Part shown: positions 5,460 through 50,187 of the stretch, piece by piece | Layout: every line of letters begins with the position of its first letter | Numbering within the stretch: position 1 is the first letter of the stretch | Assembly (NCBI GenBank): GCA_026016225.1 | Contig: CP061210.1 | Coordinates: forward strand, 593,131-657,130 | Origin: Candidatus Nealsonbacteria bacterium | GTDB taxonomy: Bacteria; Patescibacteriota; Minisyncoccia; Minisyncoccales; JANBVM01 | Direction of reading: 5' to 3' | Length of the DNA: 64,000 bases | Made by a program: the position numbers and the translations under genes | Notes under the pieces: generated by a model | The model's input: the letters and a program-made list of their open reading frames with translations, nothing else | What the model was told of the DNA's origin: nothing | Database searches by the model: none

Positions 5460-7529
5460 TTATTTCCTTACCTCCCATTCAGGATCTTTTTCTAAGACTT
5501 TAATTATTTTCTCTTGAATATCATCTATTTCTTTTGAAGTTAGTGTTCTGTCTTCTGCTTGATAAATTATATGAAAAGCCAAATTCTTTTTTCCCTCAGC
5601 TATTTCTTCTCCTTCGTAAATGTCAAAAAGGTCAACATCTTTAATCAGATTAAGACCAGTTCCCTCAATTTTATTTAAAACCTCCTCAACTAAAACATCT
5701 CTCGGAACCAAAACCGCTATATCTCTGACAGCAGATGGATAAGGAGAAATTGGTCTAAATTCCTGTTCTTCTGAAACAAGTTCTTGTAGTTTTTCAAAAT
5801 CAAAATCAAAAATCACTACTTTAGCGTTTAATTTTAAGGCCTCTGTAATTTTAGAAGAAATCTCTCCCAGAAAACCGACTTCCTCATTACCTATCTTAAT
5901 CTCAGCACGCCTTTTGGAATTCCAGACAAAAGCTTTTGATTCTTCTGGTGTTGGTTGATATTGGTCATACCAAATATCGCTTATTCCCAAATTATTCAAA
6001 AGCAAATCTATAACACCTTTTGCCTCATAAAATACCTCACCTGTCATTAAACCTGTGAGAGCTGTTTTTTCTTTATCTTTTTCATTTTTGAAAATCTTTC
6101 CCAGCTCAAAAATTCTAATATCATTGAAACTCGCCTGCCATCGCCTTGAGCTCAAGCGATTGGCGGGCAGGAACTTTTGATTCTCCTGAAAGCTTTTTAG
6201 AACTTTTGGAATCAAACTTGGCCTTAAATACTGAAAGTCAGCACTAATCGGATTCTCTGTCTCAATCAACTGAAAATTTCTATAACCGAATAATTTAGCT
6301 TCTTCCTTATTAATAAAAGAAGAGCTATAAATCTCAGTAAATTCTGCTTCCTTTAATATATTTTTTGTCATATCTTCCCAGAAAACATTAAGATTTCTTT
6401 CAGGCGGAATCAAAGCAGCTTTAGGAAAAACAGAAGGAATTTTCTCATAACCATAAATCCTTCCAATTTCCTCAATTAAATCCTCAGGAATTGAAACATC
6501 CAGTCTAAAACTAGGAATCTCTATCATAAGTTGATTGGTTGATGATTTGAGAAATTTAAAACCAAGTCGCTTTAGAATATTTTTTATTCTGCTTGTTGAA
6601 ATTCTAACTCCCAGCAAACTCTCGACATAATCTAAATCTAATTTAATTTTCTTTATTGAAACTTTTTTAGGGTAAAAATCAACCAATCCCTTACAGATTT
6701 TGCCTCCGGCAATCTTTCCAATCAAATAAGCTGCTCCATTTATTCCAAATTCGGTTAAATTCAAATCCAAACCATGTTCAAATCTCCATGAAGCATCTGT
6801 TTTCAAATCTATTTTTTTGGAACCCTTACGAACAACTCTTGGATTAAAATTAGCAGACTCTAACACAATAACTTTTGTTTTTTTTGTTATCTCGGCCTTT
6901 TTCCCGCCTTTTATCCCGGCAATTGCCAAAGGGTCTTTTACATCCGAAATAACTAAAATATCCTTATTTAATTTATATCTTTCATTGTCTAAAGTAATAA
7001 TTTTTTCTCCTTTTTTAGCTCTCCTGATAATTATCTTTTGGTCTAAAATTTTATCCAAATCAAAAGCGTGTAATGGCTGACCTGTTTCCAACATCACGTA
7101 ATTTGCAATATCAACCACATTATTAATCGGTTTTAAACCTAAAATCTTTAATCTGTCCCGAAGCCATTTTGGAGAAGGAGCTATCTTGACATCTGTAACA
7201 ACTCTGGCTGTATACCTTAAACAGTCTTTTTTGCTTTTAACTTTTAGTTCTATAAAATCCTTTGCTCTATATTTTCCCTCTTTTAAAGAATAGTCTTCAA
7301 ATCTTAATTTAGTATCTAAAACAGCAGAAATCTCTCGAGCAATACCTAAATGAGAAAAACAATCAGGTCCCCTATTGGGCAAAATATCAATATCTAAAAC
7401 CCAATCCTTTCCTATTTTTTCTACCTCTTCAACCTCAAAGCTGTGCATTGTTAAAACCTCTGCTAATTTATTGGCTTTTGGCAGTTTTTTCTTAAAAAAT
7501 GATTGTAACCAGTTATAAGAAAAAAGCAT
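5460..7529 (-). CDS. pheT: phenylalanine--tRNA ligase beta subunit
   Basis: N-terminus MLFSYNWLQSF, B3/4 and B5 regions, and a C-terminal anticodon-binding-like domain. It is adjacent to pheS. It is short at 689 aa and seems to lack the N-terminal OB tRNA-binding domain. Confidence 0.9.
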   Translation of the reverse strand: MLFSYNWLQSFFKKKLPKANKLAEVLTMHSFEVEEVEKIGKDWVLDIDILPNRGPDCFSHLGIAREISAVLDTKLRFEDYSLKEGKYRAKDFIELKVKSKKDCLRYTARVVTDVKIAPSPKWLRDRLKILGLKPINNVVDIANYVMLETGQPLHAFDLDKILDQKIIIRRAKKGEKIITLDNERYKLNKDILVISDVKDPLAIAGIKGGKKAEITKKTKVIVLESANFNPRVVRKGSKKIDLKTDASWRFEHGLDLNLTEFGINGAAYLIGKIAGGKICKGLVDFYPKKVSIKKIKLDLDYVESLLGVRISTSRIKNILKRLGFKFLKSSTNQLMIEIPSFRLDVSIPEDLIEEIGRIYGYEKIPSVFPKAALIPPERNLNVFWEDMTKNILKEAEFTEIYSSSFINKEEAKLFGYRNFQLIETENPISADFQYLRPSLIPKVLKSFQENQKFLPANRLSSRRWQASFNDIRIFELGKIFKNEKDKEKTALTGLMTGEVFYEAKGVIDLLLNNLGISDIWYDQYQPTPEESKAFVWNSKRRAEIKIGNEEVGFLGEISSKITEALKLNAKVVIFDFDFEKLQELVSEEQEFRPISPYPSAVRDIAVLVPRDVLVEEVLNKIEGTGLNLIKDVDLFDIYEGEEIAEGKKNLAFHIIYQAEDRTLTSKEIDDIQEKIIKVLEKDPEWEVRK

Positions 7530-8596: not shown

Positions 8597-8796
8597 TTCT
8601 TCGCTAAAAAATAAGTTCCTTCTACTATTAATTTTACCTTAATTTTTGCCTTAAATCAAGGTAAAACTGTGCACAAATAAACCTCCTTAAAATAAAAAAA
8701 ACAGAAGAAATAAATATAAAAAAAATTACATTATTTTTTCTTTCTGTTTTTTGATATACAATTACATCCAATTACATACAATTCTATCTAATTTTG

Positions 8797-8870
8797 CGGG
8801 GACGACGAGACTCGAACTCGCAACCTCGTGATCGACAATCACGAGCTCTAACCAATTGAGCTACGTCCCC
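8797..8870 (-). tRNA. tRNA-Asp (anticodon GTC)
   Basis: Minus strand: GGGGACG TA GCTC AATTGGTTA GAGC T CGTGA TTGTCGA TCACG AGGTT GCGAG TTCGAGT CTCGT CGTCCCC G. Cloverleaf is canonical with a TTCGAGT T-loop and a GG D-loop. No CCA is encoded. Confidence 0.85.
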
Positions 8871-8874
8871 AGGG

Positions 8875-8947
8875 TGCCGGTGACGGGACTCGAACCTGTA
8901 ACCTCTAGCTTATGATGCTATCGCTCTAACCATTGAGCTACACCGGC
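8875..8947 (-). tRNA. tRNA with CAT anticodon (elongator Met or Ile2/lysidine type)
   Basis: Minus strand: GCCGGTG TA GCTC AATGGTTA GAGC G ATAGC ATCATAA GCTAG AGGTT ACAGG TTCGAGT CCCGT CACCGGC A. G1-C72 is paired and the T-loop is canonical. There is one A/C mismatch in the T stem. Confidence 0.75.
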
Positions 8948-8948
8948 T

Positions 8949-9019
8949 TTGCGGTGCCTGGAATTGCACCAGGGCCTCCAGCTTATGGGACTGGCGAGGT
9001 ACTACTCCTCTACACCGCG
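8949..9019 (-). tRNA. tRNA with CAT anticodon and an initiator-like acceptor (C1/A72 mismatch), atypical loops
   Basis: Minus strand: CGCGGTG TA GAGG AGTAGTA CCTC G CCAGT CCCATAA GCTGG AGGC CCTGG TGCAATT CCAGG CACCGCA A. The acceptor resembles E. coli tRNA-fMet (CGCGGGG...CCCCGCA). Atypical points are C at position 33, no GGG/CCC in the anticodon stem, a D-loop without GG, and T-loop TGCAATT. Confidence 0.5.
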
Positions 9020-9031
9020 ACAATATCGCTA

Positions 9032-11352: not shown

Positions 11353-12396
11353 TTAATGTGGAGGTTCTAACTCTGCTGTCTCCACCAATACTTCCTCTAA
11401 CTCATCTAAATTCTCTAAAACCATCCCCGCTCCCCTAACAACAGCTGTCATTGGGTCTTCAATAATTCTTGTTGGTATCCTTGTCTCTTTCTGAATTAAT
11501 ACATTTAATCCTCTTAAAAGAGCTCCGCCACCTGACAAATAAATTCCTTTTGTCATTACGTCAGCTAAAAGTTCAGGCGGTGTCTCTTCAATAGCTATTT
11601 TAATTTCTGTCACAATTCTTCCTATAGATTTTTCCATCGCCCTCCTTACTTCCCTATGAGAAATCAAAACTTCTTCAGGAAGACCAGTTACTAAATTTCT
11701 TCCTCGCATTGGAATTTCTTTTTTCTCTTTTAAAAGATGGGCTGAACCTATACCAATTTTAATCATTTCAGCTGTTCTCTCCCCGATTAATAGTTTATAT
11801 TCTTCCTGGGCAAAATGAATTATGTCATCATTAAGCTTATCTCCAGCTATTCTAAGACTTTTTGATAAAACTATACCTCCTAAGGAAATTACTGCCACCT
11901 CTGTTGTACCTCCTCCGATATCGACAATAAAATTCCCGCCTGCTTCCTGAACGGGCAATCTAGCTCCAATGGCTGATGCCATTGGTTCGTCAATTAAGAA
12001 AACTTCTCTTGCTCCCCCCGATTTTGCAGCATCAATCACTGCTTTTTTTTCTACTTCAGTTACTCCGGAAGGTATACCAATGATAATTCTTGGTCTGAGC
12101 CACCTTTTTTTCCTGGTTTTCTCAATAAAATACCTCAGCATTTGTTCTGTGACTTCAAAGTCAGAAACCACTCCGGCCCTTAAAGGTCTGGTTGCCACAA
12201 TATAAGAAGGGGTTCTCCCTACCATTTTTTTAGCTTCAGAACCAATTGCTAAAACCTGACCTGTTTTTTTATTTACAGCAACTATCGAAGGCTCTTGCAT
12301 AACAATACCCCTTCCACGTACATAGACCACAGAGTTGGCAGTACCAAGATCAATAGCAATATCCTCTGATAAAGCTTTAAAGATTTTTTTCAACAT
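11353..12396 (-). CDS. mreB: rod shape-determining actin homolog MreB (copy 1)
   Basis: IAIDLGTANS, DIGGGTTEVAVISLGG and LSGGGALLRGL motifs. Confidence 0.9.
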   Translation of the reverse strand: MLKKIFKALSEDIAIDLGTANSVVYVRGRGIVMQEPSIVAVNKKTGQVLAIGSEAKKMVGRTPSYIVATRPLRAGVVSDFEVTEQMLRYFIEKTRKKRWLRPRIIIGIPSGVTEVEKKAVIDAAKSGGAREVFLIDEPMASAIGARLPVQEAGGNFIVDIGGGTTEVAVISLGGIVLSKSLRIAGDKLNDDIIHFAQEEYKLLIGERTAEMIKIGIGSAHLLKEKKEIPMRGRNLVTGLPEEVLISHREVRRAMEKSIGRIVTEIKIAIEETPPELLADVMTKGIYLSGGGALLRGLNVLIQKETRIPTRIIEDPMTAVVRGAGMVLENLDELEEVLVETAELEPPH

Positions 12397-13687
12397 TCTT
12401 TTTTAAATTAGTAATTTCTATTAATTTTACTCTACTTTCATCTCTTCTTTTTAACTCAACAGAGTTTTTCCTTAACGTCTTTTCAGAAACAACAATCCTC
12501 ATTGGAATACCTATCAAATCACAATCTGCAAACTTTTCTCCTGCTGATTTATCTTTCCTATCATCATATAATATTTCAATATTTTGTTTTTGTCCACCTA
12601 TGCCGGAGGCTACGGCGGATCTACCGCAACTCCTCTTCTGAGAAGCAGAAACGGATAAATCCCTGTATATTTCATCTGCCTTTTTTCTTACATTTTTAGT
12701 ATTATCAAGAGAAATTAAATGAATCTGAAAAGGAGCTATTTCCTTTGGCCAAATAATTCCATTTTTATCGCTATTGACTTCAACCGAGGTTGCCATTAAT
12801 CTGGGAAGGCCAATTCCATAACACCCCATTAAAATAAATTTCTCTTTACCGTCTTTATCTTTATATTTAGCGTTCATATCCTTACTATACTTTGTCCCCA
12901 GATAGAAGATATGTCCTACTTCAATTGATTTTTTAGTCTCCAATGGACTTTTACATTGGGGACATTTTTTGTTTCTACCCATCACTTCAATATTTACTCC
13001 GTAATTACATTTTTTGCAAAGTAAAATCTTATCCTCGCCAATATTAGATATGACCATGAATTCATGAGAAAGCTTGCCGCCAATTGTACCAGAACTTGCT
13101 TCAACGCAAACTGTTTTTAACCCACACCTCTTAAAGATTTTAAAATAAGATTTTTTTATTTTTTCATAAAAATTGACCAAGTCTTTCTTATTAGAATGAA
13201 AACTATATAAATCCTTCATTATAAATTCTATTGTTCTTAAGAGTCCGCCGGTAGCCCGCATTTCATTACGGAATTTATTCTGAATCTGAAAGAGAAAGAA
13301 AGGTAAATCTTGGTAAGAACTAACTCTTTTTCGGACCATATCCACCATTTCCTCTTCATGGGTAGAACCCAAAGCTAATTCTTTATTGTGGCGGTCTTTC
13401 AATTTAAAAAGAGGTGGATCCATAGCATTCCAGCGTTTAGTTTCCTGCCAAAGATTCTTATTTTGAAAAGTTGACAAATATACTTCTTGAGCACCCAGCT
13501 CAAGCATTTCTTCCCGGATAATTTTTTCAATTTTTTTCAAAACTAAAAATCCTAAGGGTAAAAATCTATAAACTCCGCTAATTGATTGCTCAATAAAATC
13601 CCCTTTAATTAAATATTTATGACTAATAGCTATTGCAGTTCTTGCTATTTTCTTTTTAGTTTTTGTGAAAAGTTGGGATTGAAGCAT
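12377..13687 (-). CDS. proS: proline--tRNA ligase, bacterial-type but without the INS editing domain
   Basis: Start MLQSQLF... (ATG at 13687 is preferred over the track start at 13729, which overlaps rseP). Class II motifs and the MGCYGIG motif are present. A CKKC...CPQC knuckle sits where INS normally lies. A GC-rich insert of about 20 aa lies in the anticodon-binding domain. Confidence 0.88.
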   Translation of the reverse strand: MLQSQLFTKTKKKIARTAIAISHKYLIKGDFIEQSISGVYRFLPLGFLVLKKIEKIIREEMLELGAQEVYLSTFQNKNLWQETKRWNAMDPPLFKLKDRHNKELALGSTHEEEMVDMVRKRVSSYQDLPFFLFQIQNKFRNEMRATGGLLRTIEFIMKDLYSFHSNKKDLVNFYEKIKKSYFKIFKRCGLKTVCVEASSGTIGGKLSHEFMVISNIGEDKILLCKKCNYGVNIEVMGRNKKCPQCKSPLETKKSIEVGHIFYLGTKYSKDMNAKYKDKDGKEKFILMGCYGIGLPRLMATSVEVNSDKNGIIWPKEIAPFQIHLISLDNTKNVRKKADEIYRDLSVSASQKRSCGRSAVASGIGGQKQNIEILYDDRKDKSAGEKFADCDLIGIPMRIVVSEKTLRKNSVELKRRDESRVKLIEITNLKKNVEKNL

Positions 13688-13692
13688 ATGTT

Positions 13693-14772
13693 TTAGAAAA
13701 TTCTTGCTATATCTTTTATTGTTACCCAAACCATTAGCAAGAGCAAAGCCATAAAAGAAAAAGCAATCATTTTTTGTTGAATTTTTTCAGAAACTGGTTT
13801 TTTTCTTACGGCCTCAATTGCTAAAAATAAAATTCTACCTCCGTCTACTGCCGGAATAGGTAAAAGATTAAATATGGCTAATTGAATAGAAATTAAAGAT
13901 AGAAAGTTCAAAAAATAAATTAATCCTAATCGTTGAGTCTGAGTTAACATTTGAAAGATTCCAACAGGTCCTACTATCTCTATTCCTGTCCGCTGGCCTA
14001 AAAATAAGTTTTCAAGAGCTTGAATATAAACTTGAATTACAGCCAAAGTAATCTTCCCCGTAGTCACAATTCCTTTAAAAGGAGCTAAATACCAGGGATG
14101 TTTTTGAATTGCCGTCCTAATTAAAGCTACTCCCATTGGTCCCTCACCTTCGGGCGGCAAAATTCTTGGTATTAAAGAAGCTTCGAAAACCTCTTTTTCT
14201 CTCTCAATTATCAAAATAATATTCTGACCTTTATTCTGGTTAATAATCTCTTTTATTTCTTTAATCTTCGTTACATCAAACCTCAAACCTCCAATCTTAA
14301 AACCTTTTATTATATCTCCTACTTTTAAACCCGCAATATCAGCCGGCGAATCTGAAGCTATATCTATAATATTGACTTTAGGATTTAAAAAATTAGAAAT
14401 TTCTTCATCTTCAATCATAACAGGAGCGCCGAGACCAAAGACAATACTAAAAAGAATTGCTGCTATTACCCAAAAAGAAAGCACCCCTCCCAAAGCAATC
14501 AAAAATCTTTTTCCAACCGATTGTCGAGAAAAACTATGAGGATCACGGCTTTTTTCAATCTCTCCCGGCATCCTGACAAAAGCACCGAAGGGCAAAAGAT
14601 TAAGAGAATAAATAGTTTCTCCAATTTTTTTTGCAATTATTCTTGGAGGATAACCTATCCCAAACTCTTCAACTTTTACTCTAAATTTTTTAGCCAATAT
14701 AAAATGACCCAGCTCATGAAGAGTTATTAAACTAATAAGACTGATAAGACCTATTATAAATGTTAAAATCAT
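13693..14772 (-). CDS. rseP: RIP site-2 metalloprotease (RseP/M50 family) with PDZ domain
   Basis: HELGHF zinc motif, a PDZ-like segment (ADIAGLKVGDII) and LLPIPAVDGG. Confidence 0.8.
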   Translation of the reverse strand: MILTFIIGLISLISLITLHELGHFILAKKFRVKVEEFGIGYPPRIIAKKIGETIYSLNLLPFGAFVRMPGEIEKSRDPHSFSRQSVGKRFLIALGGVLSFWVIAAILFSIVFGLGAPVMIEDEEISNFLNPKVNIIDIASDSPADIAGLKVGDIIKGFKIGGLRFDVTKIKEIKEIINQNKGQNIILIIEREKEVFEASLIPRILPPEGEGPMGVALIRTAIQKHPWYLAPFKGIVTTGKITLAVIQVYIQALENLFLGQRTGIEIVGPVGIFQMLTQTQRLGLIYFLNFLSLISIQLAIFNLLPIPAVDGGRILFLAIEAVRKKPVSEKIQQKMIAFSFMALLLLMVWVTIKDIARIF

Positions 14773-14781
14773 CTAACCATT

Positions 14782-15354
14782 TTAACCTTCTATTTCTTTT
14801 TTCTTTTTTTGTACTATTTCTTCAATTTTCTCTTGAAACTCCTTTATCAAATCCTCTAGTTCATCTTTTCCTTTATACTTATCATCTTCACTAAGCTTGC
14901 TTTCTCTAAATGCTTCCTGTATCTCTTTCCAAGCCTCATCTCTCCACTTCCTGATTGTTTTTTTAATCTGTTCTTGTTTCTCAATAACTAAACGAATCAA
15001 ATCATTTCTAAACTCTTCGCTTAAAGGCGGCAGGGTGATTCTAATTAGGGCTTTGTCAACTATTGGTGAAGCCCCTATACTGCTTTTTTCCAAAGACTTT
15101 ACAATTTCCTCGATATAGGATTTGTCCCAGGGTTGAATCAAAATCTCTCTTGGCTGGGGAATTGATATTGCAGCTAACTGCTTCAAAGAATATATCTTGC
15201 CAAAATATCCGACGCTAATATTCTCAACTAAAGAAGGAGAAGCTCTCTCGGCTCTAATTTTTTGCAATTCTCTATTTAAAAAATTGACAACCTTTTCTAA
15301 TTCAGGTTTTATTTTTTCAATAATGTCTTTGTAAGAAATTCTTTCTTCTGACAT
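14782..15354 (-). CDS. frr: ribosome recycling factor
   Basis: 190 aa with typical RRF segments (RASPSLVENISV.YFG, IPQPREILIQPWD). Confidence 0.9.
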   Translation of the reverse strand: MSEERISYKDIIEKIKPELEKVVNFLNRELQKIRAERASPSLVENISVGYFGKIYSLKQLAAISIPQPREILIQPWDKSYIEEIVKSLEKSSIGASPIVDKALIRITLPPLSEEFRNDLIRLVIEKQEQIKKTIRKWRDEAWKEIQEAFRESKLSEDDKYKGKDELEDLIKEFQEKIEEIVQKKKKEIEG

Positions 15355-15362
15355 AAAATGGC

Positions 15363-16280
15363 TTAAAGCTTCATCATTAATATTTCTAAAGCTAATCTTG
15401 GGTTAATGTTCGTGGTTGAAATTACATAAATTGTTTCTTGAATAGCGTCGAGAATGTTTTTTATTTTTAATAAATTTGGTCTGTTTTTAGCAAAAAGTAA
15501 ATTCTTTCTGAAATAAAACAACCAAGCATCCAATGTTTCTTTCAGGTCTTCTTTTTGGGATAATTCTTTAACATATTGAAAACGTAAAGAAAGCGGAGAA
15601 TTTGAAATTTTTTCCAATTTTTTTATCTTTTTCTTTCTCTGTTCTAATTTCTCGGAGTTTTGCAAAAAATTAATAGCTTTTCCGGGTCTCCCTAATGAAA
15701 GTTCAACAATTTGTTTAATATCTTCCTTCGGAACTTTTTTTTGTTTCAAGTAAAGACTTATTTCTTCATTTTTCACGGAGTAAAACTTAACATTTTCACA
15801 CCTTGAAAGGATAGTAGGTAAAAGATAACCTGGATGCTCTGTAATTAAAATTAAAAGACTTTTAGTTTTTGGTTCTTCTAAGCTCTTTAAAAAACAGTTT
15901 TGGGCCTCCCGGGTCATTAAATGAGCTTTATCAACTATTACGCCTAAAAGAGGTGCTTTTATAGGTTTTAAGGATAATTTCCAATTAAGCTCTCTAATCT
16001 GAGCAATTTGAATCTGCTCACGCACCAGAGCAGACCTCGGAGCGGGGGTGTTGCGCCCAACCGAACTTTGTTCTGGTCTGGGATGTTTTGTTCTTGGGAC
16101 AATCAAAATAAAATCTGGATGACGAGACAGTTCTTCTTTAAAAAGAGAAGAAATTAGCTCTAAAGCTATTGTTCTTTTACCTAACTCTTCGGGTCCGGTA
16201 AACAGTAAAGCATGAGGAATTTTTCCTGAGCTAACTATTTTTTTTAAAAACTCTTGTTGTTTTTTATGGCCAATAATCAC
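15363..16280 (-). CDS. holB: DNA polymerase III delta-prime subunit
   Basis: HALLFTGPEELGKRT P-loop-like start, HPDF, and the SLEEP...ILSRC sensor region. It contains a GC-rich insert of about 20 aa. Confidence 0.7.
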   Translation of the reverse strand: MIIGHKKQQEFLKKIVSSGKIPHALLFTGPEELGKRTIALELISSLFKEELSRHPDFILIVPRTKHPRPEQSSVGRNTPAPRSALVREQIQIAQIRELNWKLSLKPIKAPLLGVIVDKAHLMTREAQNCFLKSLEEPKTKSLLILITEHPGYLLPTILSRCENVKFYSVKNEEISLYLKQKKVPKEDIKQIVELSLGRPGKAINFLQNSEKLEQRKKKIKKLEKISNSPLSLRFQYVKELSQKEDLKETLDAWLFYFRKNLLFAKNRPNLLKIKNILDAIQETIYVISTTNINPRLALEILMMKL

Positions 16281-17278
16281 TGTTTCTTCCTCATTATTGT
16301 TTTTTTATAGAGGTCTAAATTTTCTAACATTACTCCTGTTCCCTTTGCTACGCATAAAGACGGGTCCTCAACTAAAATAGCTGGAACACCTATGGATTTG
16401 GCAATTAATTCTGGAAGATTATCTAATAGAGAACCTCCTCCTGTCATTACCATCCCTTTATTCATGATATCAGCCGACAGTTCAGGTGGAGTATCTCTAA
16501 GTACTAATTTAATTACGTGAATAATCTCGGAAAGAATATCAGAGAGGGCTTCGCACATATCATTTGACGAAATTTTAATATTTTTAGGTAATCCTAAAGA
16601 CATATCTCTTCCTCGAATCTCCATCTTTTTTTCTTCCTTCTCGGGAAGAGCGGTACCGATTCTCTTCTTTATCTCCTCTGATGTTTGTTCTCCGATAGCT
16701 AAATTGTATTTCTTCCTAATATAATCAGAAATAGCAATATCCATTTTATCTCCTGCTATTCTTATAGAATGAAAATTAACAATTCCACCCAAAGAAATCA
16801 CTGCAGCTTCAGTTGTCCCTCCCCCAATATCAACAATCATATTACCGGAACAACTATCAATTGGAACCCCCGCTCCAATAGCTGCTAAGATGGGCTCTTT
16901 CGCTAAATAAACTGTTTTCGCTCCGACATTCATGCCGGCTTCAATTACCGCCCTTTTTTCAGTAGAAGTAATACCGGCTGGAACACCAATCATCAAATCT
17001 GGCTTGAAAAGGCGAAAATGACCCATCGTTTTATCAATAAAATGTTTAAGCATTGCCTGGGTTACTCTAAAATCAGCAATCACTCCGTCCTTAAGAGGTC
17101 GATAAATACGGATTGTATCGGGAGTACGTCCCATCATTTCTTTAGCTTCTCTTCCCACAGCTAAAATCTCATTCTCTGCTATGGCTACTGCCACTACTGA
17201 TGGTTCTTGTAAAACCACTCCTTTTTTAGGAATAAAAACAACTGAATTGCAGGTTCCTAAATCAATACCAATTCTCAT
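16277..17278 (-). CDS. MreB-like actin homolog (copy 2)
   Basis: MRIGIDLGTCNS, DIGGGTTEAAVISLGG and MTGGGSLLDNL motifs. It lacks the N-terminal extension of copy 1. Confidence 0.85.
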   Translation of the reverse strand: MRIGIDLGTCNSVVFIPKKGVVLQEPSVVAVAIAENEILAVGREAKEMMGRTPDTIRIYRPLKDGVIADFRVTQAMLKHFIDKTMGHFRLFKPDLMIGVPAGITSTEKRAVIEAGMNVGAKTVYLAKEPILAAIGAGVPIDSCSGNMIVDIGGGTTEAAVISLGGIVNFHSIRIAGDKMDIAISDYIRKKYNLAIGEQTSEEIKKRIGTALPEKEEKKMEIRGRDMSLGLPKNIKISSNDMCEALSDILSEIIHVIKLVLRDTPPELSADIMNKGMVMTGGGSLLDNLPELIAKSIGVPAILVEDPSLCVAKGTGVMLENLDLYKKTIMRKKQ

Positions 17279-17295
17279 AGTAGTGCTAATACATA

Positions 17296-17392
17296 ATCAG
17301 GTCGCTCGCCTTCGGCGAAAGCCTGTTTTCCTACATGGGGGAAACCTGAGAGTGGTGGACACTCACTCTCGCCCCCCCCCTCCGATATAGGA
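17296..17392 (-). promoter_or_regulatory. GC-rich structured leader upstream of mreB copy 2
   Basis: Minus strand reads ...UAUAUCGGAGGGGGGGGGCGAGAGUGAGUGUCCACCACUCUCAGGUUUCCCCC...CAGGCUUUCGCCGAAGGCGAGCGACCUG. Hairpins are GAGAGUG/CACUCUC and UCGCC-GAA-GGCGA. It shares a motif of about 35 nt with the rpsQ leader. Confidence 0.4.
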
Positions 17393-17505
17393 AAGTCTGT
17401 TTAAAAGATTATCTTTTTCCTCTTTAAAGATAACTTATCTTTTCAAATTTTGCAACTTTCAAAAAAAAAGAAGTCAAAAAATAGTCCTCTATAAGTTAAT
17501 GGCTC

Positions 17506-18870
17506 TTGAAGTTAATATTTAAAACAAATATAATGTTTAAAATGAGAGGAAAAACTCGCAAAATTCTATTGTTTCTATTTTTCCTTATATTTATTATCTC
17601 AGCACCCTTATTGGTGTTTTATTTTCAGGGATATAGATTTGATTTTAAAAACAAAAAATTGATCCAAACGGGCGGTCTTTTCTTTAAAATAAAACCGAAA
17701 CAAACAAAAATTTATTTAGACGAAAAATTATCAAAAGAAACTGATTTTCTTTTTGGTTCAGCTCTAATTGAAAATCTTTTACCAAAAAAATATAATGTTA
17801 AAGTAAAAAAAGAGGGGTATTTTGATTGGGAAAAAAACTTAGAAATAAGAGAAAAGGAGGTTACAGAAGCTAGAAATATTGTTCTTTTTCCAAATGATAT
17901 TAATTTTAGTTTTTTATCAAAAGGAATTAAAGATGTTTGGCTTTCTCCCGACGAAAGAAAAATGATTTTTAAAGAAAAGAAAGAAGATATCTGGGAATTG
18001 AAAATTTATGATTTAGAGAAAAACTTAAAGAGCCACCTTCTTAAAGAAAGTGATATCTCAAGTAAAGGAGCTGATTTATTTGACCTGGAATTTTCCAGAG
18101 ACGGAAAGAAAATATATTTTGATACTTTAATTGAAGAACAATTAAGAAAAAAGAAGAGTTTTGTTTTAGAAATCGATAAGAGCCCCCCTTTCTTAAAAGA
18201 AACTGAAAAAACTTTACCACCTCTGGAAAATATTATAACCTCTCAACAAATCAATGAAGAAGTTTATTATCTGGATAATTTTGGTTATCTTTACAAATCG
18301 GATAGTTCTTTCTCTAAAGCAGAAGAAATCACAAGAGTGCCTTTTCCTTTAAAACAGGAAACCGACTATCAATTATATGTTTTTTCTGACTTTGTCTTTC
18401 TAATAGAAGGAGGGAAATCTCTGCATTTATTAAATCAAGAAACAAAATTATTCGAAAATTTCTTCGAAGGAATAAAGTCTCTAAAAATCTCTCCTGATTT
18501 TGAAAAGATAGTCTATTTCTCTAATTACGAAATTCAAATTTTTTTCCTGAAAGAAAGTCCAAAGCAGCCAAAAAGGGAAAAAGGAGAAAATATGTTTTTA
18601 CTCCGCCTTTCAGAAAAAATCAAAGATGTTTTCTGGATAACACCAAATCATTTGATTTTCAGCACCGAGAATAATATAAAAATTACTGAAATTGACAATA
18701 GAGATATAATAAATATTATTCAATTAGCTGAGTTTTCATCTTTTATTAAGAACCACGGAGAATCTACTAAAGACCGGGGAAATCTAAAAATATTCTGGAA
18801 CTCTATTAATGAAAGACTCTATGTCTTAGCTAAAGAAAGTCTATGGGTTTCAAATAAACTGACTCCCTAA
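17506..18870 (+). CDS. membrane-anchored protein with PEGA-like domain and beta-propeller-like repeats
   Basis: N-terminal TM (ILLFLFFLIFIISAPLLVF), a PEGA-like stretch (KYNVKVKKEGYFDWEKNLEI), and repeated WLSPDERKMIF / FSRDGKKIYF / ISPDFEKIVYF motifs resembling TolB/PD40 blades. The true start may be the internal MRGKTRK. Confidence 0.4.
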   Translation: MKLIFKTNIMFKMRGKTRKILLFLFFLIFIISAPLLVFYFQGYRFDFKNKKLIQTGGLFFKIKPKQTKIYLDEKLSKETDFLFGSALIENLLPKKYNVKVKKEGYFDWEKNLEIREKEVTEARNIVLFPNDINFSFLSKGIKDVWLSPDERKMIFKEKKEDIWELKIYDLEKNLKSHLLKESDISSKGADLFDLEFSRDGKKIYFDTLIEEQLRKKKSFVLEIDKSPPFLKETEKTLPPLENIITSQQINEEVYYLDNFGYLYKSDSSFSKAEEITRVPFPLKQETDYQLYVFSDFVFLIEGGKSLHLLNQETKLFENFFEGIKSLKISPDFEKIVYFSNYEIQIFFLKESPKQPKREKGENMFLLRLSEKIKDVFWITPNHLIFSTENNIKITEIDNRDIINIIQLAEFSSFIKNHGESTKDRGNLKIFWNSINERLYVLAKESLWVSNKLTP

Positions 18871-22913: not shown

Positions 22914-23033
22914 TTCTTAATTCGTAGAATCAAGGTTCTGAGGAGCGGAGCGACGAATGGTTCTTAATTCAAAGAATCAAGGTTCTGAGGAGCGGAGCGA
23001 CGAATGGTTCTTAATTCAAAGAATCAAGGTTCT
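22914..23033. repeat. 47-bp tandem repeat, about 2.5 copies, in the rpsK-rpsD spacer
   Basis: The unit ttcttaattcRWagaatcaaggttctgaggagcggagcgacgaatgg occurs at 22914-22960 and 22961-23007 with 2 mismatches, plus a 26-nt partial copy at 23008-23033. This is followed by the hairpin CTCACC-gaa-GGTGAG. Confidence 0.85.
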
Positions 23034-23050
23034 CACCGAAGGTGAGGTTC

Positions 23051-28433: not shown

Positions 28434-29156
28434 TCAATAGTTACTTTTAGATAATAGTTTAACTATCTTAATAAATTCTTTTGGTTTTAAAGAAGCTCCT
28501 CCAATTAAAAGACCTTGAAATTTGGATTCTTTAATATAACCTAAGGCATTTTGAGAATTAACACTGCCACCGTATAAAACAGGATGTTTCTTTCCTAAAA
28601 CCTTTTTAATTGAAAGATTGAATCTTTTGGCCTGGGAAAAACTACAGGCTTTTCCAGTTCCAATCGCCCATATTGGTTCGTAAGCCACAATTATCTTTTT
28701 AATTTGGCTTTTTAAAATTCCCTTAATACCTCTTTTAATTTGAGAAATCTCATCAATGCATAAAATAGGTCTTAAATTTTGTTTAAGGACTGCTTTTAGC
28801 TTCTTATTAATTTCTGCGTCTTTTTCTAAGAAATGACTTCGTCTTTCAGAATGACCAATAATTACGTATTTACAACCCAAATCCGTAAGCATCAAAGGAG
28901 ATATCTCTCCTGTAAAAGCGCCTCTTTCTTCCCGGAAACAATTCTGTGAGCCGAAGGCGAGTCCTCCGTAGCTCGCCCTGCGGCGAGCGGAGGAGGGAGC
29001 TCCCAATAAAGATAGATAAACAAAAGGTGGACAAATTACTACTTCTGCATTTTTGACATCTTCAATCCCTCTTCTTATTGAATTGAAAAGATTACTTGCT
29101 TTTTTTAAGCTTGTTGGATTACATTTCCAATTACCTATAATGAAAATTTTATCCAT
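28434..29156 (-). CDS. tpiA: triosephosphate isomerase
   Basis: GNWKCN, GHSERR, AYEPIWAIGTG and GGASLK motifs. It contains a GC-rich palindromic patch at 28947-29003. Confidence 0.88.
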   Translation of the reverse strand: MDKIFIIGNWKCNPTSLKKASNLFNSIRRGIEDVKNAEVVICPPFVYLSLLGAPSSARRRASYGGLAFGSQNCFREERGAFTGEISPLMLTDLGCKYVIIGHSERRSHFLEKDAEINKKLKAVLKQNLRPILCIDEISQIKRGIKGILKSQIKKIIVAYEPIWAIGTGKACSFSQAKRFNLSIKKVLGKKHPVLYGGSVNSQNALGYIKESKFQGLLIGGASLKPKEFIKIVKLLSKSNY

Positions 29157-35088: not shown

Positions 35089-35490
35089 TTAAAATTTTAG
35101 TTCTCCTGCTCGAGCTCCCTCTGCTAATGATTTTACTCTTCCATGATATTTATATCCTCCCCTATCAAAAACAATCTCCTTAATCTTTAACTCTTTGGCT
35201 TTTTGGGCGATTAATTTACCAACTTCAAATGCTGGGGCTAATTTACCTGAAAATTCTTCCTTGCCCGCCGTAGCTTTCTTTATCGACTTCTTACTCTTCT
35301 TTACTACATTCAACTCCAAATCATTAGCTGAAGCAATAATCCTATTTCTTTCATCATCAATTAATTGAGCGTATATATGTTTGTTTGAACGAAAAACACA
35401 AAGACGGGGTCTCTTTGCTGTACCAGAAATTTTACCTCTTACTCTCTTATGTCGTCTATATTTTTTTCTTCTTTTCCCCTTTACATTCAT
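35089..35490 (-). CDS. rplR: 50S ribosomal protein L18
   Basis: [20 protein letters not shown]...[25 protein letters not shown]. Confidence 0.93.
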
Positions 35491-48978: not shown

Positions 48979-48982
48979 TTTT

Positions 48983-49057
48983 CGGGCTGTAGCGCAGTTT
49001 AGTTAGCGCGCTCGCATGGGGCGCGAGAGGCCGCCGGGGCAGAGCCGGCCAGCCCGA
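48983..49057 (+). tRNA. tRNA-Pro (anticodon GGG) with non-canonical T- and D-loops
   Basis: CGGGCTG TA GCGC AGTTTAGTTA GCGC G CTCGC ATGGGGC GCGAG AGGCC GCCGG GGCAGAG CCGGC CAGCCCG A. All four stems are perfect and G37 is present. The T-loop is GGCAGAG rather than TTCRANY, and the D-loop lacks GG. Confidence 0.6.
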
Positions 49058-49088
49058 CACTTTTATTTAGAGACGCTAAAAAATGAAC

Positions 49089-49171
49089 TACCCCGCCCTA
49101 AAGGGACGGGGTATCCCTTCCGCCAACTGGCGGAGGGGCAAGTTCTTTTGCCCCGCCTGGGCGGGGCAAAA
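49089..49171. repeat. cluster of three GC-rich hairpins between tRNA-Pro and the nuclease-like gene
   Basis: TACCCCGCCC-taaa-GGGaCGGGGTA at 49089-49113. CCTTCCGCC-aact-GGCGGAGGG at 49115-49138. TTTTGCCCCGC-ctgg-GCGGGGCAAAA at 49146-49171. None is followed by a T-run. Confidence 0.8.
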
Positions 49172-49179
49172 TAAAATCT

Positions 49180-50037
49180 ATGAGTAAAGTTATTGTTAAG
49201 TGCTCTTATTGTAAAACGGAATTCCAGCGAGAATTGGGAAGATACAACGAAGCAATAAAGAAAAGTTGGAATCAGTATTGCTCTCAAGAATGTCAAAATA
49301 AGTCTAAGATTAAAAGAGTAGAAAAAATTTGCGGTAATCCAAAATGTAACAAGAGGGTGTCTCGTAAATTCCACGAATTTAAAAAATCAAAATCAGGCAG
49401 CATCTTTTGTTCTCTTTCTTGTGCCGTGTCGGTCAACAATTCTAAATTTCCAAAAAGACAGGCAATAAAAAGAAAATGTCTCTATTGTGAAAAAGATTTT
49501 GTCGGCGGAAAGAAATATTGCTCGATAAAATGCAAAAATAAAGCCCAAATTATAAGCAAAGAAGAAATCTGTGATAAAATTAAAGGGTTCTATAAAAAAT
49601 ATAGAAGGATTCCTGTCAAAAAAGAGTTCTCTCATTATAATGCTGCTCGAGATCGGTTCGGTTCTTGGAATAAAGCAATAGAATCAGCAGGCTTCGTACC
49701 TAATCCAGTAGTATTTGCAAGAAAGCACAAAGCAGAAGATGGACATGTGTGCGATTCTCTATCGGAAAAAATTGTTGATGATTGGCTTTCTAAAAACAAC
49801 TTAAAGCACAAAATTAATGTTGCCTATCCAGGGAATCCCCGTCTAACATGTGATTTTTTAGTAGGTAACTATTTTATAGAATTTTTCGGAATTGGAAAAG
49901 AACACGTACGATACACAGAACTAATGAAAGAAAAAAGGCGATTGGCTCAACAGTATAACCTTAATATGGTAGAACTAAAGCCTGAACACATTTTTCCTAA
50001 AAATAAGTTAGACGCTGTATTAAATTTTCTTCTATAA
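49180..50037 (+). CDS. multi-Zn-ribbon protein with homing-endonuclease-associated repeat and C-terminal PD-(D/E)XK/Vsr-like nuclease-like domain
   Basis: Three CxxC...(F/Y)CSxxC modules are followed by FYKKYRRIPVKKEFSHYNAARDRFGSWNKAIESAGF, an HNH-associated-repeat-like pattern. The C-terminus is CDSLSEKIVDDWL...TCDFLVGNYFIEFFG, like small DUF559/Vsr-type nuclease folds. The family assignment is pattern-based only. Confidence 0.45.
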   Translation: MSKVIVKCSYCKTEFQRELGRYNEAIKKSWNQYCSQECQNKSKIKRVEKICGNPKCNKRVSRKFHEFKKSKSGSIFCSLSCAVSVNNSKFPKRQAIKRKCLYCEKDFVGGKKYCSIKCKNKAQIISKEEICDKIKGFYKKYRRIPVKKEFSHYNAARDRFGSWNKAIESAGFVPNPVVFARKHKAEDGHVCDSLSEKIVDDWLSKNNLKHKINVAYPGNPRLTCDFLVGNYFIEFFGIGKEHVRYTELMKEKRRLAQQYNLNMVELKPEHIFPKNKLDAVLNFLL

Positions 50038-50105
50038 AAACAACTAAGATTAATTACAGAGATAGAAATTCTCGGGTATTCTAAACTTAGCGCGAACCTA
50101 TTTTC

Positions 50106-50155
50106 AGCGAAACGCCTAACCGCCGTTTCGCTTTGCCCGCGCGAAGCGCGGGCAA
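50106..50155. repeat. two adjacent perfect GC-rich hairpins downstream of the nuclease-like gene
   Basis: AGCGAAACG-cctaaccgc-CGTTTCGCT at 50106-50132. TTGCCCGCGC-gaa-GCGCGGGCAA at 50133-50155. Confidence 0.8.
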
Positions 50156-50187
50156 GGAAAAGAAAGTTTTTCAAAAATCTTTATTGG

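Follow-up and report, generated by a model that had tools for sequence, protein, structure and literature searches.

A GC-rich in-frame insert in the prolyl-tRNA synthetase gene of a Nealsonbacteria genome, a candidate mosaic of hairpin modules

The prolyl-tRNA synthetase (ProRS) gene proS in a stretch of 64,000 nucleotides from a Candidatus Nealsonbacteria genome (contig CP061210.1; the whole stretch is called the window hereafter) carries a 63-nt GC-rich insert that adds 21 codons to the anticodon-binding domain and leaves the reading frame intact. The explanation that we find probable, on balance, is a low-copy mosaic of hairpin modules resembling repetitive extragenic palindromes (REPs), which would have been inserted in frame, passively translated and tolerated in a disordered loop. 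The evidence for it comes from the empty site of a sister genome, from the patchy distribution of the insert among related ProRS genes, from near-identical copies of one of its modules outside proS, and from a strain-specific insert in another housekeeping gene.

Boundaries, composition and structure of the proS insert

The gene, the insert and its two modules are located as follows.

12377..13687, minus strand: proS (prolyl-tRNA synthetase), 436 aa from the annotated start MLQSQ, with Pfam and PDB matches
12593..12655, minus strand: 63-nt (21-codon) in-frame insert encoding SVSASQKRSCGRSAVASGIGG, GC 57%, defined by the gap against L001/P0003, by composition and by AlphaFold
12620..12655, minus strand: 5' hairpin module Y, TCCGTTTCTGCTTCTCAGAAGAGGAGTTGCGGTAGA, from the RNA fold, matching the AT-rich insert of L083 in register
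12593..12619, minus strand: 3' hairpin module F1, TCCGCC-GTAGCCTCCGGCATA-GGTGGA, 27 nt, with near-identical copies in L098, L170/L144 and the tpiA gene of L214

Read from the annotated start, the window ProRS is 100% identical to P0001, 'proline--tRNA ligase [Candidatus Nealsonbacteria bacterium]'; the mechanical open reading frame (ORF) extends to 13729 (12377–13729, minus strand). The ORF combines a class II core (Pfam tRNA-synt_2b) with the HGTP_anticodon domain, identifying it as a bacterial-type ProRS, and its best matches in the PDB are ProRS structures (E = 1e-99). Around the site, the protein reads ...EIYRDL-SVSASQKRSCGRSAVASGIGG-QKQNIEILYDDR. Further upstream in the chain, the enzyme is without the editing (INS) domain, aligning with a gap at P. 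aeruginosa residues 244–400, and in its place has a CxxC...CxxC motif (CKKC...CPQC, residues ~224–245), which probably forms a small zinc ribbon.

DNA alignment to the empty-site ortholog of contig L001 (P0003, 415 aa) revealed one clean 63-nt gap, equal to 21 codons, at 12593–12655 or 12594–12656, one A being ambiguous. The junctions read ...GGGATTT/ATCCG...AGGTGG/ACAAAAAC..., with the insert between the slashes. An original prediction, made from the letters of this DNA, had placed a GC-rich in-frame insert in the anticodon-binding domain at 12595–12657 and had described its residues as extra relative to typical bacterial ProRS. Both the insert and the extra residues are borne out, as P. aeruginosa ProRS also aligns with a 21-residue gap here; the positions were off by 1–2 nt, the L001 alignment giving 12593–12655 and the plus-strand sequence quoted at the time being found at 12594–12654.

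The insert stands out by base composition. Its GC content of 57.1% compares with 32% for the proS gene and 33.4% for the window overall, and lies within the top 0.42% of all in-frame 63-nt coding windows of the stretch. Third codon positions are 47.6% GC versus 25.3% for the gene (binomial p = 0.022), and synonymous codon usage falls in the lowest 0.7%, with rare codons used. Because the anomaly extends to synonymous sites and codon choice, amino-acid content alone does not account for it.

In the mRNA sense, the insert folds into two adjacent hairpins. The 5' hairpin, module Y, has an inner stem formed by CTTCTC and GAGGAG and an outer stem that joins UAGAUCC to GGAUUUA from the native flank. 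The 3' hairpin, module F1, reads UCCGCC-GUAGCCUCCGGCAUA-GGUGGA over 27 nt, with a 6-bp stem that includes one G.U pair and a 15-nt loop beginning with GTAG; its end coincides exactly with the 3' edge of the insert. The short inverted repeats that had been named in the insert are all present. The folding energy of the insert with its flanks is −27.2 kcal/mol (z = −2.27), and the DNA fold of the insert has a z of −1.85.

An AlphaFold model of the window ProRS built with 68 homologs (mean pLDDT 81, pTM 0.83) positions the insert in the anticodon-binding domain, after helix 1 (residues 331–346) and before strand 2 (372–375). Residues 348–367 have pLDDT values below 50 and are devoid of secondary structure. 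A structural check for a surface loop, proposed along with the original prediction, thus returns a predicted disordered surface loop, which fits the tolerance of an in-frame insertion.

Relatives of the insert in proS and beyond

The insert is rare among the 120 closest ProRS sequences (61–100% identity). It occupies the site in three of them, P0001, P0002 and P0034; the remaining 117 have empty sites of equal length, with the short loop DL-QKxx-hEVLYDDR. The insert is thus not conserved as a protein segment across the lineage, whereas such conservation was the outcome that the original prediction had named as refuting its proposal of a hairpin-type element; the sequences without it include that of the sister genome L001. 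The filled sites encode the following.

P0001 (window): SVSASQKRSCGRSAVASGIGG, 21 aa
P0002 (L002): SGSALSSGRGCSKALAMERAGG, 22 aa (66 nt)
P0034 (L083): FSFISQKKSSGKLTLSR, 17 aa (51 nt)

Pairwise and quartet analysis of the proS gene gives the order ((window, L001), L002), L003, L083. The window gene is 86.2% identical to that of L001 and 81.2% to that of L002 at the nucleotide level, and 38 informative sites join the window with L001 versus 15 and 20 for the alternative groupings, which makes the empty L001 the sister of the window genome and leaves the filled L002 outside the pair. The nearest relatives of P0034 (81% identity) are likewise empty. Tree and distribution together call for either several gains at one codon boundary or several codon-precise losses, and either history is unlike that of an ordinary, vertically inherited loop.

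The three inserts are related in part. GC content is 57–61% in the window and L002 lineages and 29% in L083. The window and L002 inserts have the termini ATCCG...AGGTGG in common, as well as a core of 17/19 nt, GATCCGCC(G/C)TA(G/T)CCTCCGG, whose offset differs because each insert contains a private palindromic module of 30–35 nt. The L083 insert matches the module Y part of the window insert in register at 24/51 nt (codon-shuffle p = 0.0012). Within the species, the tryptic peptide SAVASGIGGQK of the window ProRS reads SAVASGVGGQK in the sister strains. ProRS orthologs of other lineages (L014, L030 and L082) contain unrelated GC-rich hairpin inserts.

The same domain accommodates further extra segments. 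In seven homologs at 61–65% identity (P0009, P0044, P0055, P0067, P0072, P0079 and P0120, the last in a divergent version), the insert IPSPAESRAKVKKRTSFSSPEN occupies the preceding loop, between strand 1 and helix 1; P0044 and P0072 have additional nested inserts, and in P0040 a 15-aa unit is tandemly duplicated beside the proS site. Judging from these alignments, the loops of the ProRS anticodon-binding domain look like insertion hot spots.

Module F1 has a sister hairpin within the window, in the triosephosphate isomerase (TIM) gene tpiA.

28962..28994, plus coordinates, gene on the minus strand at 28434–29156: sister hairpin F2 in tpiA, TCCTCC-GTAGCTCGCCCTGCGGCGAGC-GGAGGA, encoding ..SSARRRASYGG.. 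on the coding strand

F2 measures 33 nt; its outer stem has 6 bp and its inner stem 7 bp. The 7-mer CCGTAGC that the original prediction had recognized in both genes is real and extends to TCCKCCGTAGC, for which the window has five matches with at most one mismatch versus 0.37 expected; the two exact matches alone correspond to the hairpins. The one-mismatch sites at 35264, 50700 and 58376 lie outside hairpins and were dismissed as chance or native coding sequence. Ortholog DNA places the tpiA patch in a whole clade, and in L214 the proS-type variant TCCGCC-GTAGCCTTTGGCGGA-GGCGGA stands at the same tpiA position. The patch adds 3–6 residues relative to TIMs in the PDB, which rules out a pure 20-aa insertion, and ~12–14 relative to the minimal TIMs of related members of the Candidate Phyla Radiation (CPR). 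Its rare GC-rich codons and its hairpin are kept between lineages of 67–74% protein identity. Synonymous-codon identity is 0.7–0.9 in the patch versus 0.5–0.6 elsewhere in the gene (six sequences), which suggests a constraint at the nucleotide level. Changes in the inner stem are one-sided among these same six sequences, which include register shifts, and produce wobbles or mismatches.

Outside CPR housekeeping genes, a metagenome scan with the shared 19-mer returned at least 120 matches, and nearly all of those listed arise by chance in GC-rich contigs or belong to native coding sequence (a cytochrome c gene in L134/L157, Gly-rich proteins in L104). Two were kept. The unrelated contig L098 (44% GC) matches at 33/35 nt by BLAST (E = 8e-9 in a 2-Mb local database; ~35/38 by eye) with the copy TTGCGGTGGA-TCCGCC-GTAGCCTCCGGCGTA-GGCGGA, located in a non-coding leader, downstream of a promoter-like TATAAT and ahead of the start codon for a membrane protein; this leader is structured and GC-rich (fold z = −3.7). 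In L170/L144 (70% GC), TCCGCC-GTAGCCTCCGGCGAA-GGCGGA lies inside an intergenic palindrome cluster, and in L170 a tpiA-type hairpin, TCCTCC-GTAGCTCG...GGAGGA, is found 50 nt from the proS-type hairpin. Of two scans of viral contigs, one gave four random matches and the other none, and a scan of 80 genome-contig loci retrieved a nearest relative of 73% identity.

The copies have a common architecture, an outer stem TCCKCC/GGMGGA enclosing a small GC inner hairpin, and a GTAG that in every copy immediately follows the 5' outer arm and precedes the inner hairpin. The loop GTAGCCTCCGGCG is almost invariant in genomes of 33%, 44% and 70% GC, and position 4 of the outer stem is G-C in the proS-type variant and T-A in the tpiA-type, a paired exchange. 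The settings range over intergenic DNA, 5' leaders and gene interiors in several genomes. Membership of the 3' module (27–37 nt) in a low-copy, REP-like hairpin family is the best-supported reading of these likenesses.

A side observation concerns the opposite strand. The antisense frame of the insert (plus strand, 12502–12699) reads TYAGGYGGSTATP and that of the L098 copy SAYAGGYGGSTATL. Three nucleotides differ between the window and L098, and two of these changes are synonymous in this frame. The synonymy is probably a coincidence, although the module may conceivably have a coding origin.

Other in-frame inserts and GC-rich patches of the genome

Two other genes of the window contain short GC-rich inserts.

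6130..6171, minus strand: 42-nt near-palindrome LPANRLSSRRWQAS, GC 67%, in-frame in pheT, in this genome only
16017..16085, minus strand: 69-nt GC-rich insert HPRPEQSSVGRNTPAPRSALVRE, in-frame in holB, the site being empty in L003 and ~20 orthologs

The pheT palindrome is missing from the sister strains L215 and L216 (CP179891.1), which are complete genomes with 98% nucleotide identity over 21 kb, and also from the more distant L083, L016 and L009. Its absence from near-identical and distant relatives alike marks it as a recent gain in this strain, so gain of modules of this kind continues. The indels between the strains over these 21 kb include two GC-rich palindromes. A 22/23-nt match of the palindrome to proS of L021/L066 falls on native AIGGQE coding sequence and was set aside as chance. 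The pheT gene of L009 (ORF L009_+_5412, residues ~85–105) contains HPELVSGSIRFRNEFGMT, which is presumably similar to the peptides encoded by a palindromic repeat that is widespread in metagenomes.

The holB insert of L001 is 129 nt long, and its ends are homologous to those of the window insert. The original prediction had grouped the proS insert with patches in tpiA and holB as one phenomenon. This holds for tpiA, which is linked by sequence, and for holB as the same kind of event; the holB insert has no sequence in common with the proS insert. Neither holB nor pheT shares sequence with proS or has the GTAG tag. All six in-gene inserts measured (63, 66, 51, 69, 129 and 42 nt) have lengths divisible by three and contain no stop codon, which argues that they are translated.

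Several other patches were noted along the way. Between the ORFs at 16277–17278 and 17506–18870, a 100-nt structured GC-rich patch at 17300–17400 has no Rfam match; 46 nt of it (~17310–17355) are missing in L215, and 32 nt match a non-syntenic segment of L003 (20977–21008) at 91% identity. This patch could correspond to a small RNA missed by annotation, or to one more hairpin module. A second intergenic cluster of up to 85% GC (48981–49175 and 50102–50169) flanks an ORF at 49180–50037 that encodes a 'homing endonuclease associated repeat' (PF18780). Just upstream of this ORF, the cluster contains a tRNA-like cloverleaf candidate uncalled by ARAGORN and Rfam, and after it come three near-perfect hairpins (DNA fold z = −6.8). 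On the downstream side there are two further strong hairpins (z = −5.5). The tRNA cluster of L216 has a LAGLIDADG_3 homing-endonuclease ORF and an extra tRNA-like segment (14823–15503), both missing from the window at 8796–9020 (tRNA-Asp, tRNA-Met, tRNA-Met) and from L215. Near rpsK/rpsD, an intergenic 47-nt direct tandem duplication (~22990–23035) is present in the window and L215 and missing in L216.

Candidate origins and comparison with known systems

The mosaic reading implies the following course of events. Two GC-rich stem-loop DNA modules would have entered proS at a codon boundary, introducing neither a frameshift nor a stop, and would be passively translated into a disordered loop rich in Ser, Ala, Gly and Arg that ProRS tolerates. 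The interior of the insert would then evolve fast, by gain and loss of modules and by decay of GC to AT. The modules may have moved in trans, most plausibly by a single-strand, hairpin-recognizing mechanism of the REP/RAYT or IS200/IS605 type, and an occupied site may attract and nest further modules. The clean empty sites would follow from a mechanism that recognizes hairpins, makes no duplication and excises precisely, and nesting into an occupied site would explain why one codon boundary is reused in three lineages. That the element is an actively mobile unit is something we infer.

A number of observations weigh against this scenario. The fold statistics are weak, slightly better than shuffles (z = −2.27 for the window insert and −0.64 for that of L002), and the 63 nt form a mosaic of two hairpins rather than one strong hairpin. 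The proS junctions (GATTT|ATCCG...AGGTGG|ACAAA) have neither terminal inverted repeats nor a target-site duplication, and those of pheT (AAGTT|CCTGCC...GCGAG|TTTCA) lack these as well as any direct repeat. The 64-kb window holds no second copy of the whole insert or of any 12-mer from it. REPs occur in tens to thousands of copies per genome; here, there are two in 64 kb, and in 1.31 Mb of related CPR loci the full hairpin motif is confined to proS of this species and tpiA orthologs. BLAST searches of plasmids with the L098 module and the tpiA patch gave nothing significant and no counterparts in cultured bacteria. Since the 19-mer scan is mostly noise, membership in the hairpin family is based on few instances. 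A Pfam scan of 19 poorly characterized ORFs of the window, which covers ~10% of the 661-kb genome, identified no transposase or RAYT. Finally, the insert is present in all three strains of the species and hence fixed, and the homologous inserts at the same site in three lineages could all descend vertically from a single old insertion that was lost elsewhere.

This last point leads to an alternative that we consider unlikely: an old lineage-specific protein loop, arisen by one ancient insertion, inherited vertically, diverging fast because the loop is unconstrained, and lost in most lineages through deletion or replacement of the allele, with no mobile element at work today. The identical codon boundary in the window, L002 and L083, with the in-register similarity between window and L083, is what such a loop would leave behind, as is the decay of the L083 copy to 29% GC, expected of old neutral sequence; fixation in the three strains and the holB insert, which tracks phylogeny and occurs in the window genome and L001 only, point the same way. 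However, this history needs many independent, codon-exact deletions at a site without flanking repeats, among others in L001 and in those relatives of P0034 that are 81% identical to it. It leaves unexplained how copies of equal age have 57–61% GC in two lineages and 29% in a third, and why 33/35 nt recur in non-coding DNA of L098 and the hairpin in tpiA (L214) and L170, and pheT documents a strain-level gain of an insert of this sort.

A functional nucleic-acid hairpin under selection, with the peptide as a by-product, is distinctly unlikely as an account of the proS insert. Such a hairpin would act on mRNA stability, processing or translation pausing, or serve as a protein-binding site in DNA or RNA. 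It would find a rationale in the Shine–Dalgarno/anti-Shine–Dalgarno-like GGAGG/CCUCC sequestered in the stem, in the tpiA hairpin and rare codons conserved across lineages, in the near-invariant loop GTAGCCTCCGGCG across genomes of 33–70% GC, and in the structured L098 leader. The outer stem adds the G-C/T-A exchange and a G.U pair in the proS mRNA sense, which on the opposite strand would become an A.C mismatch. Yet the proS copy is missing in L001 and in 117 of the 120 homologs and so is dispensable there, the L002 and L083 versions no longer form the hairpin, and the one-sided inner-stem changes in the six tpiA sequences are not compensatory. Rfam searches of the window, L098 and L002, in both gathering and E-value modes, detected nothing but three tRNAs and left the insert unmatched.

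An assembly or binning artefact, in which a chimeric read or foreign GC-rich fragment was joined into proS, would account for the abrupt change in base composition and nothing else, and is refuted, to the point of being vanishingly improbable, by the identical protein in an independent Logan assembly (L085), the 98%-identical 436-aa form in two complete genomes and one further contig, the related insert at the same site in a separate sample (L002) and the intact reading frame.

A more novel reading combines selection with spread. CPR and some unrelated bacteria might share an ancient conserved GTAG hairpin (TCCKCC-GTAG...GGMGGA), selected at the nucleotide level in 5' leaders and in essential genes such as tpiA and proS, either as a recognition site for a conserved protein or for control at the RNA level, and spreading precisely, without duplication and possibly by reusing sites. 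We regard this reading as decidedly doubtful; if true, the hairpin would spread by a mechanism undescribed for this phylum. The near-identical hairpin in genomes of 33–70% GC and the conserved rare codons of tpiA suggest either a nucleic-acid function or an unknown mobilization system. The three near-identical genome sequences that differ by the pheT insert make module gain directly testable. In tiny AT-rich genomes, modules that are conspicuous by composition and decay to AT with age could become datable markers of insertion and loss. They may also underlie some of the unusual variation seen in loops of CPR proteins, which would aid the curation of alignments and structure models. A literature search found no report of in-frame GC-rich hairpin modules in CPR genomes, and searches with translated-repeat peptide strings gave nothing relevant.

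Several classes of known elements can be compared with the modules. Miniature inverted-repeat transposable elements have terminal inverted repeats and target-site duplications, which the proS and pheT junctions lack. Inteins and self-splicing introns do not match a 21-codon insert that has no Rfam match, among inserts that are all in frame and without stops. Rickettsia palindromic elements (RPEs), which Ogata and colleagues are said to have described in 2000, reportedly measure 100–150 bp and form multi-copy families within one genus that are not GC-rich islands. RPEs are found in-frame in essential genes of a small AT-rich genome, are translated and surface-located, and vary between related species. 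The proS and pheT inserts are likewise in-frame in genes of known function and polymorphic between relatives; the RPEs are set apart by description, having a length of 100–150 bp and a Rickettsia consensus family, whereas the modules here measure 27–42 nt, or 63 nt as a mosaic, in a CPR host.

Yeast mitochondrial GC clusters are 30–60-bp GC-rich palindromes in an AT-rich genome, multi-copy, strain-polymorphic and sometimes in-frame, as in var1, and their main class has a specific target and a 2-nt duplication. The modules described here share the GC-rich palindrome, the AT-rich genome, the polymorphism between strains and the in-frame position, as an analogy only: the yeast clusters are organellar, duplicated at the target and multi-copy, whereas the present modules are duplication-free, low in copy number and in an unrelated host. 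REPIN/RAYT and IS200/IS605-derived elements move by single-strand 'peel and paste' with hairpin recognition, no target duplication, precise excision, and clustering or nesting. By mechanistic inference alone, these properties would fit the clean empty sites and the reuse of a site in proS; unlike IS200/IS605, the present system has no HUH/Y1 transposase among the 19 ORFs scanned and no conserved target tetranucleotide was found.

The closest counterparts are intragenic REPs. GTAG- and CGTC-tagged REPs and the Rickettsia RPEs, which end in CGTC, encode ~20–30 residues that presumably lie in loops or linkers, often as dimers and without duplication (PMC3733652). Like the proS modules, intragenic GTAG-tagged REPs are short GC-rich imperfect palindromes with GTAG near the stem, occurring singly or as dimers and mosaics, in-frame in known genes and without target duplication (Di Nocera, De Gregorio & Rocco 2013, PMC3733652). 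G.T pairs in the stem suggest that REPs act as hairpins at the RNA level (PMC3733652), and the proS stem likewise has its G.U pair. The 27-nt proS unit and the 33-nt tpiA unit also fall within the 20–40-bp imperfect palindrome with a stem-loop by which REPs are recognized. Whether the modules belong to the REPs in the strict sense is less certain: REPs have an unpaired GTAG at the end of the stem-loop and are RAYT-associated, whereas here copy number is low, GTAG precedes and tags the inner hairpin but has a further outer stem around it, and the 19 scanned window ORFs include no RAYT or other transposase. In contrast to REPs, the near-identical hairpins span genomes of very different GC, and in the 33% GC CPR genome that hosts the proS insert the modules are conspicuous for their base composition. 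Rickettsia and a few REP-rich bacteria were already known to carry palindromic insertions in frame within housekeeping genes, and here they are found in the CPR. The kind of element thus has precedents in the RPEs, in intragenic REPs and in the GC clusters of yeast mitochondria; the new aspects are the host group, the low-copy hairpin found across genomes and the polymorphism at the level of strains.

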